A DNA stretch of 24,000 bases from Methanomethylovorans sp. (GTDB lineage Archaea > Halobacteriota > Methanosarcinia > Methanosarcinales > Methanosarcinaceae): the NCBI GenBank assembly GCA_014361205.1, contig JACIVZ010000011.1:1-24000 (forward strand). Direction: 5' to 3'. Positions 257 to 18,868 of this stretch are shown piece after piece. Position numbers and translations under genes: made by a program. Under the pieces are notes generated by a model. The model saw nothing but the letters and a program-made list of their open reading frames with translations. It had not been told where the DNA came from and did no database searches. How positions within the stretch are numbered: position 1 is the first letter of the stretch; each line of letters starts with the position of its first letter.

Positions 257-985
257 TTAATCTACGAATTTTATGCTTACATCTTTCATGTTATTACGTA
301 TAGCAACATTTAGAAGAAGTGGTGTAAGAGATTCAACCATTGAGGATGCTTCAAGAGGACCAATATCCAGAGGGCGCATTCCAGGAATATCTCTTACGAG
401 ACCAAAAACAATATTTTTTGATTTTTCACAATTGCCACATACTCCAATATCATAATTAAGTTCTATATCAAGGTCTGCAAGTTTTGCAGCAGGTACTGTA
501 TGGAATGCAGACACAACCTCAGTTGCACTATCCTTAAGCAAAGAAGCAATTTCCTGTGCAGCACTTCCTATAGCTGGAGCTATGTAACAGAAATATTCTT
601 TTTTGTAATCGTCACTAAAATTCGTTGATATTTGAAGGGGAACTTCCCCTGGAACAATCATACAGGAATTCTTTTCCATAGGTACAACTATAGATATCAG
701 TATCTTACCAGCAATTCCAGGTTTTATTTGCTCAATGGTGGAGGCAACCTGAGCATATCTTATTGCAAGGAGAACCACATCTGCTTCTGCGGCTGCCTTT
801 ACATTGACATCTCCAGTTATGTCTGCCTTATAGCCATAAACTTTCAAGATATCATTATATTCAGCTGCCTTAGCCAGTGCTTTTTCTTGATTCCTTGAAC
901 CTACTATCACCTTGTGTTTCAGTCCCCACCTGAGAGCAAAACCTTTACCGATGCTACCTGTACCACCAATTATTGCAATCTTCAT
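257..985 (-). CDS. fno: F420H2:NADP+ oxidoreductase (Fno/NpdG family)
   Basis: 242-aa ORF with an N-terminal Rossmann motif (MKIAIIGGTGSIGKG). It is collinear with archaeal Fno over its full length (SAFHTVPAAKLA, GMRPLDIGPLE, VESLTPLLLN, IKF at the C-terminus). A GAGGGG RBS-like element lies just upstream of the ATG. Confidence 0.9.
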   Translation of the reverse strand: MKIAIIGGTGSIGKGFALRWGLKHKVIVGSRNQEKALAKAAEYNDILKVYGYKADITGDVNVKAAAEADVVLLAIRYAQVASTIEQIKPGIAGKILISIVVPMEKNSCMIVPGEVPLQISTNFSDDYKKEYFCYIAPAIGSAAQEIASLLKDSATEVVSAFHTVPAAKLADLDIELNYDIGVCGNCEKSKNIVFGLVRDIPGMRPLDIGPLEASSMVESLTPLLLNVAIRNNMKDVSIKFVD

Positions 986-1550: not shown

Positions 1551-1757
1551 TTAATCCTCAGCTTCAAGTGCCTGTATAATATCATTTATAGTAAGTTCAC
1601 CTCTTGCAACACGCAAGACAGTAGGATATATGAAAGAACAGTCTTCAATCTTGCTCCACCGTTCTTCACCAATGATATTCACTACTTCTGCCATTATTTT
1701 TCCACATTCATTACAATATCTGTTGGTGCTTTCAACACCACAAACAACACATTTCAT
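1551..1757 (-). CDS. Small zinc-ribbon protein (hypothetical)
   Basis: 68-aa ORF with CxxC-x9-CxxC at the N-terminus (MKCVVCGVESTNRYCNECG) and a non-repetitive acidic C-terminal half. It is flanked by AT-rich intergenic DNA. No family was recognised. Confidence 0.45.
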   Translation of the reverse strand: MKCVVCGVESTNRYCNECGKIMAEVVNIIGEERWSKIEDCSFIYPTVLRVARGELTINDIIQALEAED

Positions 1758-2093: not shown

Positions 2094-3227
2094 GTGTCAG
2101 ATGATCTTTTTAACTTAAAAATTGGAAATTTATCTCTTAAAAACCCCATAGCTCTTGCATCGATGGGGGGAATAACAGATAGTATATTTGCAAATGAATT
2201 TGCAAAAGATGCCGGGCTTGTAATACTTGGTGGATATAATCTTGACACAGTAACAAATAGGGCAGCATCCGACATAATAAAGAGAGGAAGAACTGAATTC
2301 ATTTCAGAAGAACCTTTAAAACTTATAAGTAACGAACTTGAATCCATTAAAATCGGTGGCGTGGTTGCTATCAATGTAAGAAGCTGCAGCATCGAACCAC
2401 TTATCGAAGCTGCGGAGATAATTAAAAATGCAAATGCTATAATTGAAATTGACGCACACTGCAGACAACCAGAAATGACAAAAATAGGCATTGGAGAAGC
2501 ATTATTAAAAAATCTGCCGAAACTGGAGGATATTATCCATAGAATAAAAACAACTGGAGCAATAGTATCCATAAAAGTCCGTGCCAACGTAATTGACAAT
2601 ATTAAAATGGCTAAAGCAATTGAAAATGCAGGTGCAGATATACTCCACGTCGATGCAATGAAGAAAGGGGCAGGAACAGATCTTGAAGCCATCAGGAAGA
2701 TAAGAGATGCTACAAGACTTTTACTTATAGGTAACAACTCAGTAACTGATTTTAACACTGCAAAGGAAATATTTGCAAGAGGTGCAGACATAGTTTCAGT
2801 TGCAAGAGGCGTAATTGAAAATCCTTCACTTATATCACAGCTTGTAAAAGATGTGACTTCACTTCAGGAAGAAATTGGCTGGTACAATGCACCTAAACAC
2901 GTATGCAGAGGAGAAGGGGACTTGCGCGGTCTTACTTTCTGCTGTCTCCCGGTCAAGGCATGCCCAGTTCACTCAAATATAAAGAAGATAGGACTCACTG
3001 CAAAAGAATTTGCTGATATAAAAATGGAATTTGCAAAGGGAACTCCTCTCGAATATGGTGACAGTACCTGTTTTGGTAGTCTTGTCTGGTGCTGTAAGAT
3101 AACAAAAATGTGTCCTTTAAGAGATTCTGTGCTTGAAACTATAGGCCTTTCTGATGCAGAATACATGAAACTCAAAAAAGAGCTTGCAGATTACATTCTT
3201 AATCACCCAAAGGTCACAGGTAAATGA
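2094..3227 (+). CDS. DUS/DHOD-like FMN-type TIM-barrel oxidoreductase with a C-terminal duplicated Cys-rich domain
   Basis: 377-aa ORF with a GTG start. IEIDAHCRQPEMTKIGIGEALLKN resembles the dihydrouridine synthase motif IDIN.GCP...G.G.ALL. IGNNSVTDFNTAKEIFARGADIVSVARGVIENP resembles I.NGDI....A......G.DGVMIGRGA..NP. The C-terminal 110 aa carries two copies of C-x(6-11)-CC-x5-CP (Cys271/283/284/290 and Cys326/333/334/340). Confidence 0.8.
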   Translation: MSDDLFNLKIGNLSLKNPIALASMGGITDSIFANEFAKDAGLVILGGYNLDTVTNRAASDIIKRGRTEFISEEPLKLISNELESIKIGGVVAINVRSCSIEPLIEAAEIIKNANAIIEIDAHCRQPEMTKIGIGEALLKNLPKLEDIIHRIKTTGAIVSIKVRANVIDNIKMAKAIENAGADILHVDAMKKGAGTDLEAIRKIRDATRLLLIGNNSVTDFNTAKEIFARGADIVSVARGVIENPSLISQLVKDVTSLQEEIGWYNAPKHVCRGEGDLRGLTFCCLPVKACPVHSNIKKIGLTAKEFADIKMEFAKGTPLEYGDSTCFGSLVWCCKITKMCPLRDSVLETIGLSDAEYMKLKKELADYILNHPKVTGK

Positions 3228-4198
3228 AAGCAATTCAATATTCAAAAGAGAAACTTGATAAGGCTTCAAGAAAAAAGGCTGCTTCGTACGTGGCACGATG
3301 TGCACAACTTGCCATGTTGCTTGAGGTATCCGCACATCCCAAACCCGGAAATATAGACCGTGATCATGATTATGATAATACTACTTTTGAGCATTTTCTT
3401 ACATCTTCGGTTTCAGTATATCCTGTATTAGAAAAAGCTGCAAGCAGGGAGTATGGTGTTGGACAATATGTACATAAAGCCGTACTTGAAAGCATAGCCT
3501 GGCAGAAAGGAGGTAATACACATTTTGGCGCTTTTCTGCTTTTATTCCCTCTTGCAATGGCAGCTGGTAAACTTATCCGTGATCAAAAAGAGCTCACCCC
3601 TGTGAATCTAACCAAAGAAGCATTCAATATTGTCAAAGAAACAGATGTAAGAGATGCAATAAAAATCTACATGTCCTTTGAACATGCAGGTGTAAAAGTC
3701 CGCAAGGTGGATAAATACGATATGTCGAATGCAGATGCCATTGAAGAGATAAAAAAGAATTCCATCACATTATTTCAATTAATGGAAATGTCAAGTTCTT
3801 ATGATATTATTGCAAGAGAATGGATATCTTGTTTTAGACAATGTGCAGAATGTGCCCGATTAATAACCAGTGAAATGAAAGAAAATGGTATATTGACCCA
3901 TTCGGGAAACTCCAGAATAAATCATGTAATAGTCTACGCTTTTCTCAAAATGCTTGCTTATGAAAAAGACACATTTATTGAAACAAAATTCAACAGTCAA
4001 ATAGCTGAAGAAGTATCTGAAAAGGCAAAACAAATTATTTTGAAACTTCAAGAATCAGGGCACAAGATGGAAAGTATACTGGATGATGTTCATAACTTTG
4101 ACGAAGATCTTCTTGCAAGGAATATAAATCCCGGTTCAACAGCTGATATAATAATTGGTGGCCTTTTTATAGCTCTTCTTGGAGGAATGAGATTCTGA
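3224..4198 (+). CDS. Triphosphoribosyl-dephospho-CoA synthase (CitG/MdcB)-like protein
   Basis: 324-aa ORF whose ATG overlaps the upstream stop (ATGA at 3224-3227). CitG-family signatures are present: LEVSAHPKPGNIDR, GGNTHFGAFLLLFPLA, and C-terminal NPGSTADIIIGGLF. No citrate lyase or malonate decarboxylase genes are nearby. Confidence 0.85.
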   Translation: MKAIQYSKEKLDKASRKKAASYVARCAQLAMLLEVSAHPKPGNIDRDHDYDNTTFEHFLTSSVSVYPVLEKAASREYGVGQYVHKAVLESIAWQKGGNTHFGAFLLLFPLAMAAGKLIRDQKELTPVNLTKEAFNIVKETDVRDAIKIYMSFEHAGVKVRKVDKYDMSNADAIEEIKKNSITLFQLMEMSSSYDIIAREWISCFRQCAECARLITSEMKENGILTHSGNSRINHVIVYAFLKMLAYEKDTFIETKFNSQIAEEVSEKAKQIILKLQESGHKMESILDDVHNFDEDLLARNINPGSTADIIIGGLFIALLGGMRF

Positions 4199-4299
4199 AA
4201 GAGAGCAGAAAACTAAAGCTGGAGGATTTCGGACTCTTTGAAGGTATCTCTGAAACCATTGTTACCACAAGCCAGGGTCTGTCACCTAATGCAGCTCCC

Positions 4300-4788
4300 A
4301 TGGGCATCATCAGAAAGCACGACACTACACTTATACGTATTTTTAAAGGTTCAAAAACGTATAAAAACATCACGACTGACAATTTCCTTGTGGCTAATAT
4401 AACAAATGACCCACTTGCCTTTGTCAGATACACTTTTTCTGAAGTGCTGCCTGAAGATATACAAACAATTTATTCTCAGGAAAGAGAGTTTCCCGTGCTT
4501 AAAGATGCTCAAAGCTGGGTTGCTTTTGAATGCATCAACACCAAAATAACACCTTATTCACTAGTAGCAGAACTTAGACCAGTCATGGGACATGTGAACT
4601 GTTGTTACCCTAAGGCACCTAATCGGGGCTTAAATGCGTTAATCGAAGCAACAATACATGCCACTCGTTACAAAATGCATGGAGAAGAAAAATATCTGGA
4701 ACTGATAAATTTCTATGAAGATATCATTAACAAATGTGGAGGAGAGAGAGAAAAAGAAGCACTTCGGCTATTGCGTACTTATCTTTAG
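4300..4788 (+). CDS. DUF447-family (flavin-reductase-like split barrel) protein; the true 5' end is probably upstream of 4300
   Basis: 162-aa ORF from the first ATG. The same frame is open back to 4147 and encodes KLKLEDFGLFEGISETIVTTSQGLSPNAAPMGI, which matches the conserved DUF447 N-terminus (G..E.IVTT....NAAPMG). No ATG, GTG or TTG occurs in that stretch. The stop overlaps the stop of the convergent PHP gene (TTTAG, 4785-4788). Confidence 0.8.
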   Translation: MGIIRKHDTTLIRIFKGSKTYKNITTDNFLVANITNDPLAFVRYTFSEVLPEDIQTIYSQEREFPVLKDAQSWVAFECINTKITPYSLVAELRPVMGHVNCCYPKAPNRGLNALIEATIHATRYKMHGEEKYLELINFYEDIINKCGGEREKEALRLLRTYL

Positions 4789-5456
4789 TCTCGTCCCAGT
4801 ATTTTAGCAGTTCTCTTCTGTGCATTCGTAAACATCTGCTTTATAACAAATATCTTTGGTGTTTTTTTGCCCCCAGGTTTTACCTTTCCTTCCCGGATAG
4901 CATCAAGGACTGCAGATAATGACCGTTCCTTTACATCAATCTCAGTATAAGACATGCCTATCATTTCAGGTACATGACAATCACTGCCTCCAACCTGAGC
5001 AAGTCCCAGCAAAGTTGCTGTTTTACGTGCCTTGTTATTAGGACCATCTGTTAAACAGCGAGAGTTCAACACTTCCACAGCATCTACATCAAGACCTTCC
5101 ACATACCCTATACCATGAGATGTTATCTTAAAAGGATGAGGTAATATTACCACAGCATTCTGAGCTCTTGCTTGCTTAATGGTTTCGGCTGGTGACAGAC
5201 CAGGTGCTATACTTTCGTTTATACCCAGTGCCAACAGGTGACCTTCAGATGTAGTGATTTCAACACCCGGAATAATCAAAAGGTCTGAACCTAGCTCAGA
5301 CGCCCTCTGAACAGTAAATGGACCGCCTTCGATTACATCATGATCACATACAGCAAAACCGTCTAAACCATTTTTTTTGGCATAATAAATTAGAGCGTCG
5401 ATATCTGCATTACTATCTTTTGAAAAACGTGTATGGACATGCAGGTCTAACTTCAT
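4785..5456 (-). CDS. PHP-domain metal-dependent phosphoesterase
   Basis: 223-aa ORF. MKLDLHVHTRFSKDS is the PHP motif I (DLH.HT..S.D). CDHD, LPHPF and GGSDCH supply the remaining metal-ligand motifs. Confidence 0.85.
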   Translation of the reverse strand: MKLDLHVHTRFSKDSNADIDALIYYAKKNGLDGFAVCDHDVIEGGPFTVQRASELGSDLLIIPGVEITTSEGHLLALGINESIAPGLSPAETIKQARAQNAVVILPHPFKITSHGIGYVEGLDVDAVEVLNSRCLTDGPNNKARKTATLLGLAQVGGSDCHVPEMIGMSYTEIDVKERSLSAVLDAIREGKVKPGGKKTPKIFVIKQMFTNAQKRTAKILGRD

Positions 5457-16213: not shown

Positions 16214-18868
16214 ATGGATTTAAATCGTTTTACTCAGAAAGCCCAGGAAGCTATCCAGCACTCAACCACAATTGCTGCCAGATACCACAACCAGCAGATA
16301 GATTGTGAACATCTGCTTCTTGCAATGCTAGAACAAAGAGGAGGATTAGTACCTACAATTTTGCAGAAGCTTGATGTAGATCCTGGAAAAGTCATGGAAA
16401 AAGTTGAAAATAAGATTGCAAGCCTGCCACAGGTATCAGGTCCTGGGGGAGAACAGGTTTACATGACTCAGACACTTAAGAGAGTGCTGGATGCCGCTAA
16501 CAAAATAGCGGAAAAAATGCAGGACGAATATATCAGCGTGGAACATCTGCTCATTGCTATTACAGATGAAAAAGATTCTGTATCAAGTAAGATATTGGCA
16601 GGCGAAGGTGTAACAAAAGATCGTATTCTTGATGCAATTAAGCAAATAAGAGGAGGTAGGCGCATCACCTCAGAAAACCCAGAAGATACAATGGAGCCAC
16701 TTAAAAAATATGGAATAGATTTCACTGAACTTGCAGCGCAGGGTAAGCTTGATCCTGTCATCGGCAGGGAACAGGAGATAAGACGCACCATAGAGATCCT
16801 GTCACGGCGCAGGAAGAACAATCCAGTTCTTATCGGGGAGGCAGGTGTAGGTAAAACAGCTATAGTAGAAGCACTTGCACAACGTATTGCAAAGAAAGAT
16901 GTACCAGATGCAATGAAAGATAAGCGGATAGTTGCATTGGACATGGGAGCACTCATTGCAGGTGCAAAATTCAGAGGAGAGTTTGAAGAAAGACTGAAAG
17001 CTGTGCTCAAGGAAGTTGTTGAATCCGAAGGGCAGATTATTCTGTTTATAGATGAACTGCATACTATTGTAGGGGCTGGAGCTACAGAAGGTGCTATGGA
17101 TGCAGGAAATTTGCTTAAACCCATGCTTGCACGTGGTGAGCTGCATTGTATAGGTGCCACTACTGTCAATGAATATCGTAAATATATTGAAAAGGATGCA
17201 GCACTTGAACGTCGTTTCTTGCCGGTTTTTGTAGAAGAACCAACGGTAGAGGATACTATTTCGATTTTGCGTGGTCTTAAAGAGAAATATGAAGTACATC
17301 ATGGTGTGCGTATTAAGGATTCTGCATTGGTTGCAGCTGCCATAATGAGCCACAGATATATAGCTGACAGGTTCCTGCCTGATAAAGCCATTGATCTTGT
17401 TGACGAAGCTGCTGCAAAGAAAAGAACTGCTATTGATAGCAAACCTGCAGAACTTGATGAAGCTGACCGTAAGATAATGCAGCTTGAAATCGAAAGAGAA
17501 GCCCTCAAGAAAGAGAAGGATGAAGCATCAAAAGAAAGACTGGAAGCTTTGGAAAAGGAACTTGCAGATATCCGGGCTGAATCAGATGCCATGAGAGCAA
17601 AGTGGAATCAGGAAAAAGAAATTATAGCCAAACTTAATTCCATTAAGCAGCAAATTGAAGAAATCAAGATACAACTGGAGCTTGCCGAAAATGATAACAA
17701 TCTGGAATTGGCTTCCAAGCTTAAATATGGTAACCTTATTCCTCTCCAGCATCAGTACGCCCAGGAAGAAGAGAAACTTAAGCAAATGCAGGGAGAAATG
17801 CTTCTAAGTGAGGAAGTAGGTGAAGAAGACATTGCTGAAGTAGTTTCTGAGTGGACAAAGATCCCTGTTACAAAGCTTCTGGAAGGCCAGCGCGAAAAAC
17901 TTATGCGTATCGAAGAAAACTTGCACCGTCGTATAGTAGGTCAAGAAGAAGCTGTAAAAGCGGTAGCTGATGCTGTGATACGAGCTTATGCTGGTATCAA
18001 AGACCCAAGAAGACCCATTGGAAGTTTTATATTCCTAGGTCCAACTGGAGTAGGGAAGACCGAATTGGCAAAAGCTCTTGCAGCTGAGTTGTTCGATGAC
18101 GAAAAAAACATGATCCGCATAGATATGTCCGAATATATGGAAAAACATACAGTTGCTCGTATGATCGGTGCACCTCCAGGTTATATCGGCCATGACGAAG
18201 GTGGGCAACTGACAGAGGCTGTGAGAAGGAGACCCTATGCAGTGGTGCTTTTTGATGAGATTGAAAAAGCCCATCCTGATGTATTCAATGTCATGTTGCA
18301 AATATTGGATGACGGAAGACTTACAGATTCAAAGGGTAGGACAGTGGATTTCAAGAACACCATCATTATTATGACCTCCAATATCTTTGCTGGAGACTTG
18401 ACAAAGCTGCTGAGTGTTCCTGACGGAACATACAGGCCGGAACAGGGCATACCTGAAGTGTTACATAAGGGAGGTTATGAATATGCTCAGTTGCAAGCAA
18501 GAGCTCTCAGCGAGCTTGGAAAGTATTTCAGACCTGAGTTTCTCAATCGTATTGATGAAATTGCCATTTTCCATGCCCTAAGACCACATGAACTTGCAAA
18601 GATAGTAGACCTTAAGGTTGCAGATCTTGTGGAGAGGCTGCATGACAAGAGAATACACCTGGAGATCACAGATGAAGCAAAACAATATCTGGGCAGAGTA
18701 GGCTACAGTGATACATTCGGTGCCAGGCCTCTAAAACGTGTTATTCAGAACGAAGTGGAGACTAAAGTAGCAAAGCTTATAGTTGCAGGCAAGGTTACTG
18801 AAGGATCGACTATCGTTGTTGATGTAAGAGATAATCAGATCGTATTGGACATTGTCCAGAAAGTATAA
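16214..18868 (+). CDS. clpB: Disaggregase ClpB (class I AAA+ chaperone)
   Basis: 884 aa. It has a Clp N-domain, NBD1 Walker [13 protein letters not shown], Walker B ILFIDELH, a long coiled-coil M-domain (residues ~410-530), NBD2 Walker [13 protein letters not shown], Walker [12 protein letters not shown], and GARPLKR. No ClpP-binding IGF loop was seen. A GGAG RBS precedes the start. Confidence 0.97.

Follow-up and report, generated by a model that had tools for sequence, protein, structure and literature searches.

What a methanogen gains from three closely spaced genes for a flavin mononucleotide (FMN) barrel protein, a CitG-like protein and a DUF447 protein, and whether these three act as one unit, is the question raised by positions 2094 to 4788 of a 24,000-nucleotide stretch of DNA (hereafter the window) from Methanomethylovorans sp. 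(assembly GCA_014361205.1, contig JACIVZ010000011.1). A preliminary description of the window, made from the letters alone, reported three same-strand genes at this place, the first two overlapping by ATGA (3224-3227), which agrees with the listing of open reading frames (ORFs), and it treated the trio as a single cofactor-biosynthesis unit. In this study, we lean towards reading the stretch as a translationally coupled cofactor-biosynthesis operon that joins two functionally separable modules, namely the CitG-like/DUF447 pair of genes 2 and 3 (module A), and the barrel gene 1 (module B). The operon probably helps to build one-carbon and redox cofactors. The copy in the window is an ordinary copy of a module widespread in methanogens, with nothing peculiar to the window, and both the families of the trio and the methanopterin link of the pair are already present in databases and literature.

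Genomes, samples and thresholds

Comparisons were carried out with a phylum sample of 91 Halobacteriota genomes (families coded f1 to f27), 151 near-complete Halobacteria, 14 named control genomes, 80 Planctomycete loci and 8 Planctomycete genomes; beyond the controls, genomes were drawn from Halobacteriota and Planctomycetota. Planctomycete DUF447 loci were collected with the sequence of Protein Data Bank (PDB) entry 3b5m, a Rhodopirellula DUF447 protein, as query, and the contig scan was limited to Planctomycetes. A barrel gene was counted as absent if no match was obtained at E ≤ 1e-10. A profile search for homologous proteins gave mainly the same Methanosarcinaceae proteins again. Adjacency among related lineages is in part inherited synteny and does not count as independent evidence. 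The observations concern family membership, gene order, fusions, patterns of joint loss and joint retention, and fold; from these we infer every substrate and every reaction proposed for the trio below.

Conservation of the trio and of the CitG-like/DUF447 pair

Gene 1 consists of an FMN barrel related to dihydrouridine synthases (Dus), fused to a Cys-rich tail that is catalogued as the methanogenesis marker 9 domain. In each genome sampled from ten families (f1, f4, f6, f8, f9, f13, f16, f18, f26 and f27; checked on fetched loci), this fusion, the CitG-like gene and the DUF447 gene lie side by side on the same strand, so that the trio is co-localized well beyond close relatives of the window organism. 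Since the order recurs in ten families and the eight Cys residues of the tail are invariant, the arrangement is not due to chance.

The pair of genes 2 and 3 is more widespread still. Within the phylum sample, DUF447 was present in 85 of the 91 genomes and a CitG-like gene in 88. In nearly all of these 85, the exceptions being family f14 and G149 of family f21, the CitG-like gene immediately precedes DUF447, and the pair was also found in lineages devoid of any marker 9 domain. Among the control genomes, Haloferax volcanii, Sulfolobus acidocaldarius and two methanogens carried both genes. In G124 (family f9), CitG-like and DUF447 are fused to one ORF of 501 aa (locus L013, 7946-9451). The cluster at L013 also holds cofD, the marker 9 fusion, dmrX, a PHP phosphoesterase gene, ubiX and a UbiD-family gene.

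Separability of the two modules

Haloarchaea that have lost the pair allow the two modules to be told apart. DUF447 was found in 147 of the 151 Halobacteria; the four genomes without it (G157, G201, G211 and G214) are small (2.1-2.4 Mb) and belong to two genera (three genomes of g52 and one of g61), so that at least two losses must have occurred. All four also lack the CitG-like gene and the family of β-ribofuranosylaminobenzene 5′-phosphate (RFAP) synthase, and all four keep cofD with a Dus-like barrel gene directly downstream. The complete set of five genes is present in five control haloarchaea. The reverse situation was found in three other groups: S. acidocaldarius has DUF447, CitG-like and RFAP-synthase-family genes and neither cofD nor the barrel; the 8 Planctomycete genomes contain CitG-like genes, and neither cofD nor an MJ0144-type barrel was found in them, DUF447 and a divergent RFAP-synthase-like gene being seen in the loci that led to these genomes (five of which are cluster representatives); and in nine Halobacteriota families the pair is present without a barrel. 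The RFAP-synthase-like, CitG-like and DUF447 genes thus behave like one functional set that is independent of coenzyme F420. The barrel is neither needed by this set nor dependent on it, because the pair-less haloarchaea keep the barrel, and Sulfolobus, Planctomycetes and the nine families keep the pair alone.

The claim that the trio works as a single unit was consequently not upheld by the distribution of the barrel, which is kept beside cofD in the four haloarchaea and absent in the lineages just named. Its mechanistic form, in which the three proteins are one stoichiometric unit for ribosyl transfer plus flavin/iron-sulfur (Fe-S) redox chemistry on a single methanopterin intermediate, with gene 1 as reductase or electron-input subunit, deserves to be weighed nevertheless. 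It would account for the close packing of the trio in each methanogen family sampled that has the full fusion, where the three genes adjoin on the same strand and often overlap, for the haloarchaeal family f20, where the barrel keeps with CitG-like and DUF447 though cofD is distant, and for family f4, where the eight-Cys tail is kept by the pair despite a degenerate barrel, which suggests that the tail serves its neighbours. A unit of this kind is hard to reconcile with the lineages that keep the pair without the barrel, with the four haloarchaea in which the barrel persists by cofD though the pair and the RFAP-synthase-like gene are gone, and with G181, where a cofD-barrel pair lies 5.6 kb from CitG-like/DUF447 on the opposite strand. 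We therefore regard one stoichiometric unit as unlikely, though as a rival to be taken seriously, and continue with two modules.

The CitG-like protein encoded by gene 2

Gene 2 is a full-length member of the Pfam CitG family (PF01874; 1.5e-71, positions 1-284 of 284) and matches PDB entry 3h9p (2.9e-27). Scores against the CitG/MdcB equivalogs (TIGR03125, TIGR03132, NF007503 and NF002315) were only 35.6-48.7 bits, with cut-offs of 272-477. As had been described before, CitG signatures thus occur here without the enzymes that CitG serves: the 24-kb window contains neither a citrate-lyase nor a malonate-decarboxylase gene (acyl carrier protein (ACP) genes were not searched genome-wide), and no CitX was detected in the genome of the window organism. 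A canonical CitG/MdcB role of gene 2 was rejected on the grounds of these low equivalog scores, the missing CitX and the lack of a client gene in the window.

The DUF447 protein encoded by gene 3 and its start

The assignment of gene 3 to DUF447 was correct, whereas the start at which its ORF is listed was not. Read from ATG 4300, the protein matches DUF447_N (PF04289) and DUF447_C (PF20766) with 70 and 71.3 bits, respectively, both over the gathering score. In a frame free of stop codons from 4147 onwards, the DUF447 match begins at 4249, and reading from 4249 raises the DUF447_N score to 96.9 bits; the ATG at 4300 cuts off a conserved N-terminal strand. Upstream of 4300, the open part of this frame contains no ATG, GTG or TTG. 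Start candidates are ATT 4192, preceded at a distance of 5 nt by a GGAGGA that belongs to the coding sequence of gene 2 as well, CTG 4195 and CTG 4219. Codon 4213 is CTA in the window, ATG in the congeners G069 and G109 (MKLEDFG...) and CTT in G063. Judged from the sequence, translation of gene 3 would need a non-canonical start or re-initiation after the stop of gene 2.

Gene 3 matches PDB entry 2nr4, which we take to be FMN-bound, at 1.7e-55, and 2iml, 2ptf and 3b5m also match. The DUF447 profile furthermore matches the flavin-reductase/FMN-binding proteins 1eje, 2d36, 1rz0 and 3nfw at 4e-6 to 2e-4.

Probable link of the pair to methanopterin-type metabolism

Most likely, CitG-like and DUF447 work on the side chain of an RFAP-derived, methanopterin-type pterin. 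The gene context points to this. Directly downstream of DUF447, dmrX, encoding dihydromethanopterin reductase (TIGR02700, 302 bits, cut-off 251), was found in six loci from five families (L005, L008, L013, L018, L020 and L025). In the representative P0315 and two Planctomycete loci, DUF447 is fused to a domain of the β-RFAP-synthase family (TIGR00144, 169 bits, cut-off 113.5), and the 80 Planctomycete loci show the order pabA (64/80), DUF447, RFAP-synthase-like gene (71/80). Each of the eight Planctomycete genomes tested has one CitG-family gene, which is unlinked to DUF447 and adjoins a pterin gene of the 6-pyruvoyltetrahydropterin synthase (PTPS) type in 4 of 6 loci. Finally, the tetrahydromethanopterin (H4MPT) islands of methylotrophs and methanotrophs have the order mch-orf5-orf7, with orf7 being CitG-like and labelled triphosphoribosyl-dephospho-CoA synthase (PMC3615186 and PMC11533326; secondary sources). 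An RFAP synthase is encoded in the genome of the window organism (358.9 bits). The link of the pair to methanopterin-type metabolism, which the preliminary description had put forward, is thereby supported by the dmrX adjacency, the fusion and adjacency to RFAP synthase, and the methylotroph islands. Of the three genes, only genes 2 and 3 co-occur and cluster with methanopterin pathway genes (RFAP synthase, DmrX and pterin genes).

Methanopterin contains an α-linked ribose 5-phosphate on ribitol. By analogy with CitG, the gene 2 protein would take ATP, release adenine and attach a 5-triphospho-α-D-ribosyl group to a putative acceptor, while DUF447 might perform or feed the flavin-dependent step that reduces the RFAP adduct's ribofuranosyl ring to ribitol.

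The distribution of the pair in haloarchaea weighs against this assignment. Halobacteria are reported to use tetrahydrofolate and to be without methanopterin (PMC8305020 supplement). Nonetheless, they carry DUF447 at the frequency given above, a CitG-like gene in every DUF447-positive haloarchaeon checked (G127, G137, G147, G166, G174, G181, G188, G195, G204 and G206) and the RFAP-synthase family in all six DUF447-positive Halobacteria checked, in G166 only with a score below the cut-off. Therefore, module A either has another role in these organisms or an RFAP-derived compound has been overlooked there. The neighbours of the haloarchaeal RFAP-synthase-like genes look KaiC-like and TFS-like (translations read by eye) and are uninformative.

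The barrel of gene 1

A Dus-like FMN barrel with a Cys-containing IDAHCRQP loop had been recognized in gene 1, and this finding stands. The Pfam Dus profile (PF01207) matches with 56 bits (4e-15) at profile positions 54-228 of 311, i.e., in the barrel part only. Against TIGR00736, the MJ0144 family of RNA dihydrouridine synthase-like proteins, gene 1 scores 188.8-190.2 bits, which is under the cut-off of 218.7 that is passed only by stand-alone copies of family f7, and on these scores it is best described as a fused, divergent relative. The nearest homologues (82-86% identical, Methanomethylovorans) are named 'methanogenesis marker 9 domain-containing protein' by NCBI. A function as tRNA Dus was considered and rejected: a separate Dus, matched in full length (261 bits, profile positions 2-296), is encoded on another contig of the genome, gene 1 leaves the C-terminal part of the profile unmatched, and the score against DusB (TIGR00737) is 58.8 bits with a cut-off of 293. 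Gene 1 is thus not the tRNA Dus of this genome.

Cys123 sits in the IDAHCRQP loop, at a position that presumably corresponds to the catalytic acid Cys loop of Dus, dihydroorotate dehydrogenase (DHOD) and dihydropyrimidine dehydrogenase (DPD). With the pattern E-(I/L)-(D/N)-A-H-C-R-Q, the loop is kept without variation by the fused methanogen forms, the tail-less haloarchaeal forms and the stand-alone f7 forms, and only family f4 has lost it. An AlphaFold2 model of gene 1 had a mean pLDDT of 83.6, with values above 90 for the barrel and 49-88 for the tail. The best Foldseek matches of the model were DPD, class B/2 DHOD and Dus (E ~1e-9), and old yellow enzyme was matched too; identity to the structural matches is only 11-20%. 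Together, fold and loop would suit an FMN-dependent ene-reductase from the Dus/DHOD/DPD class in which the Cys is the proton donor.

The Cys-rich tail of gene 1

Residues 262-370, the tail, correspond to the methanogenesis marker 9 domain (TIGR03277), with 170.8-173.7 bits (cut-off 96.2) over positions 1-108 of 109. It had been described as a duplicated motif with eight Cys that does not correspond to a canonical ferredoxin; the motif, its duplication and the difference from ferredoxins are all real, and the tail is not new, being already catalogued as a domain without assigned function. The eight residues (C271, C283, C284, C290, C326, C333, C334 and C340; nt 2904-3113) are arranged as C-x11-CC-x5-CP and C-x6-CC-x5-CP. 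As the two halves align with 36% identity over 36 residues (E 1e-7), the duplication is real. None of the eight Cys varies among 14 sequences from 12 family codes, including two lineages with a divergent stand-alone marker 9 domain, or among 57 close homologues. Among the 14 control genomes, TIGR03277 matched in M. jannaschii and M. acetivorans only, and in the phylum sample, the domain was absent from the 12 family codes without a full match, so that within these samples it agrees with a domain confined to methanogens. No sequence relative of the tail was found in the PDB. From its conserved Cys pattern, the tail may be a metal-binding or Fe-S electron-input domain.

In locus L012 (7857-8810) of G004, a genome of family f4 from the same class, the gene 1 orthologue has 317 aa; the AHCRQ loop and other conserved stretches of the barrel are lost, and the eight Cys of the tail are kept. 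Because the Cys residues persist there despite a degenerate barrel, the marker 9 tail may have a function of its own.

Gene 1 and its possible role in the synthesis of F420

The barrel takes the place between cofD and the CitG-like gene. The order cofD-barrel-CitG-like-DUF447 was found in families f9, f12, f22, f24 and f25, followed by dmrX in f9 and f24, and the upstream gene is a genuine cofD (TIGR01819, 340 bits, cut-off 257). In f15 and f23, cofD lies directly upstream of the CitG-like gene. Upon rearrangement, the barrel may follow either partner: it goes with cofD in G181 and in the four haloarchaea without module A, and with the pair in f20 and in all other methanogens.

In archaeal F420 synthesis, the source of 2-phospho-L-lactate (2-PL) or, alternatively, the reductase of dehydro-F420-0 is unidentified (PMC6450877, PMC8498797, PMC8764529). 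Bashiri et al. (2019; PMC6450877) reported that M. jannaschii CofC and a CofD homologue make dehydro-F420-0 from phosphoenolpyruvate (PEP); they found no archaeal reductase in a search that covered only nitroreductase folds near cofE. Hasan et al. [quoted passage not shown] Due to this preference, the missing archaeal step may be the formation of 2-PL and not the reduction of dehydro-F420-0.

Gene 1 could act here as an FMN ene-reductase into which, in methanogens, the eight-Cys tail would feed electrons by means of Fe-S clusters or another metal. The best-supported candidate role would be beside CofD in the phospholactyl branch, converting either PEP to 2-PL or dehydro-F420-0 to F420-0; alternatively, gene 1 might supply reducing power to module A in methanogens. 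That gene 1 and its tail-less haloarchaeal relatives are in fact the missing archaeal F420 enzyme, for one or the other of these two reactions, is a tentative proposal with a lower than even chance of being right, which we derive solely from gene order and co-retention with cofD. If it were true, 'CofB' would be a reductase and not a lactate kinase (in the version with PEP as substrate of 2-PL formation), and the marker 9 tail would wire gene 1 to a low-potential electron donor in methanogens.

Several observations speak against a role in F420 synthesis. In all methanogen families gene 1 adjoins the CitG-like gene, and cofD is located elsewhere except in f9; in the window genome, it is found on another contig. 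The haloarchaeal f20 barrel stays with CitG-like and DUF447, 430 kb away from cofD. As cofD is present in 89 of 91 genomes, its co-occurrence with the barrel has almost no statistical power. Moreover, nine cofD-positive families are without the barrel, which consequently is not a universal F420 enzyme, and the best-scoring stand-alone barrel, that of f7, adjoins dapF and gyrA and not cofactor genes.

The same neighbourhood could also be taken to place the cluster in its entirety, with CitG-like and DUF447, in F420 biosynthesis, e.g., for making or activating the phospholactyl unit. Such an explanation would make use of the genuine cofD directly upstream of the cluster or of CitG-like, of the haloarchaea, which make F420 and reportedly no methanopterin, and of npdG, located 1.1 kb upstream of the operon in the window. 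It is very improbable, since the 8 Planctomycetes and S. acidocaldarius have CitG-like, DUF447 and RFAP-synthase-family genes without cofD, cofD persists in four haloarchaea that have lost the pair, and the established structure of F420 includes no ribofuranose for a CitG-type transfer to provide.

Hardly credible is the annotation at face value, with gene 1 as an RNA Dus, gene 2 as the enzyme making triphosphoribosyl-dephospho-CoA for an ACP and the clustering as incidental: the Pfam Dus and CitG matches and the NCBIfam name of TIGR00736, 'RNA dihydrouridine synthase-like', would suggest it, but the genome has its own full-length Dus and gene 1 covers only the barrel part of that profile, CitG/MdcB scores of 35-49 bits stand against cut-offs of 272-477, CitX is lacking in the genome and client genes in the window, and an order kept in ten families together with fusions to DUF447 and RFAP-synthase-like domains is not incidental. 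The two-module operon, with a methanopterin-type role for the pair and a possible F420 role for gene 1, remains the interpretation that we prefer.

Operon layout and other genes of the window

The coordinates of the operon and its convergent neighbour are collected in Table 1.

Table 1. Features of the three-gene operon and of the adjacent convergent gene; positions refer to the window.
Feature	Position	Strand	Remarks
Gene 1	2094..3227	+	377 aa, GTG start; FMN barrel (~residues 1-255) and marker 9 domain (residues 262-370)
AHCRQ codons, residues 121-125	2454..2468	+	Loop with Cys123
Marker 9 domain	2877..3203	+	Tandem duplication of a ~55-aa unit, eight Cys; putative metal or Fe-S site
ATGA overlap, gene 1 stop / gene 2 start	3224..3227	+	
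Gene 2, CitG superfamily	3224..4198	+	324 aa
Gene 3, DUF447 (FMN-binding split-barrel family)	4192..4788	+	ORF listed at 4300-4788, 162 aa
PHP-domain phosphoesterase	4785..5456	-	Convergent with operon; library matches

The PHP phosphoesterase gene was the convergent neighbour of the operon in the window and in loci L005, L013, L020 and L025 (four family codes) and may be weakly associated with it. Housekeeping genes with no relation to the operon make up the rest of the window (npdG, the PHP phosphoesterase gene, hflX, endA, an IorA-like gene with marker 11, radC, mobB/moaE, groES/EL, hsp20 and clpB).

Upstream of the operon and on the opposite strand, npdG (257-985, minus strand; TIGR01915, 219 bits) encodes an NADPH-dependent F420 reductase and is a second F420-related neighbour of the operon. 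The AT-rich spacer in between contains a 68-aa ORF (1551-1757, minus strand) with a zinc-ribbon-like N-terminus (CxxC...CxxC) and without family match. At 8748-11202 (minus strand), an IorA-like gene that looks truncated (331.7 bits, cut-off 650.9) is overlapped at its start by methanogenesis marker protein 11 (TIGR03280, 366.6 bits); the two may be another uncharacterized marker gene pair. A bacterial-type chaperone block in this archaeon is located at 13407-18868 (plus strand) and comprises groES, groEL, an hsp20-type gene and clpB. The GroES ORF as listed has a 48-residue N-terminal extension ahead of the family match, which is probably caused by an alternative start chosen upstream.

Significance

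In methanopterin synthesis, enzymes are missing for the steps in which the ribofuranosyl ring is reduced, the α-ribose phosphate is attached and hydroxyglutarate is added, and in archaeal F420 synthesis the same applies to the origin of 2-phospho-L-lactate or, alternatively, to dehydro-F420-0 reduction. The operon provides three concrete candidates in cultivable and genetically tractable organisms (Methanosarcina, Methanococcus and Haloferax), and the separability of its modules tells which phenotype is to be expected for which gene. Its value is that two long-standing pathway gaps become directly testable. It also raises the question why almost all haloarchaea keep the set of RFAP-synthase-like, CitG-like and DUF447 genes.

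Comparison with known systems

The systems closest to gene 1 in structure are DPD, class 1B/2 DHOD and tRNA Dus, which gave the best structural matches to its barrel. All of them use FMN and an active-site Cys for the reduction of a C=C bond adjacent to a carbonyl group, and in DPD the FMN barrel is followed by an Fe-S domain. Gene 1 differs from Dus in having no tRNA-binding helical domain, and from all three in its eight-Cys tail, which has no detectable PDB relative and is not a ferredoxin motif. Regarding the proposed reaction, the nearest likeness is FbiB's C-terminal domain, the bacterial dehydro-F420-0 reductase encoded beside F420 genes, for which FMN-dependent reduction of an enolpyruvyl C=C bond is described (PMC6450877), the role suggested here for gene 1; unlike the TIM barrel of gene 1, this domain has a nitroreductase fold.

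Gene 2 shares with CitG/MdcB (EC 2.4.2.52) the full-length PF01874 family, a fold family with the solved archaeal member 3h9p, and, by analogy, the presumed chemistry with ATP as ribosyl donor and formation of an α-glycosidic bond. Its constant partner is DUF447 and not an ACP system, and its acceptor would be a pterin-aryl-ribitol instead of dephospho-CoA.

With respect to gene context, the H4MPT islands (mch-orf5-orf7-fae; orf19-orf22) resemble the operon in holding a CitG-like gene, and the Planctomycetes in combining DUF447 with pabA and the RFAP-synthase-like gene, and CitG-like with PTPS. The Planctomycete genomes tested differ from the methanogen operon by lacking the MJ0144-type barrel, the marker 9 domain and cofD. 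Whereas the bacterial genes are dispersed, those of the methanogen operon are coupled.

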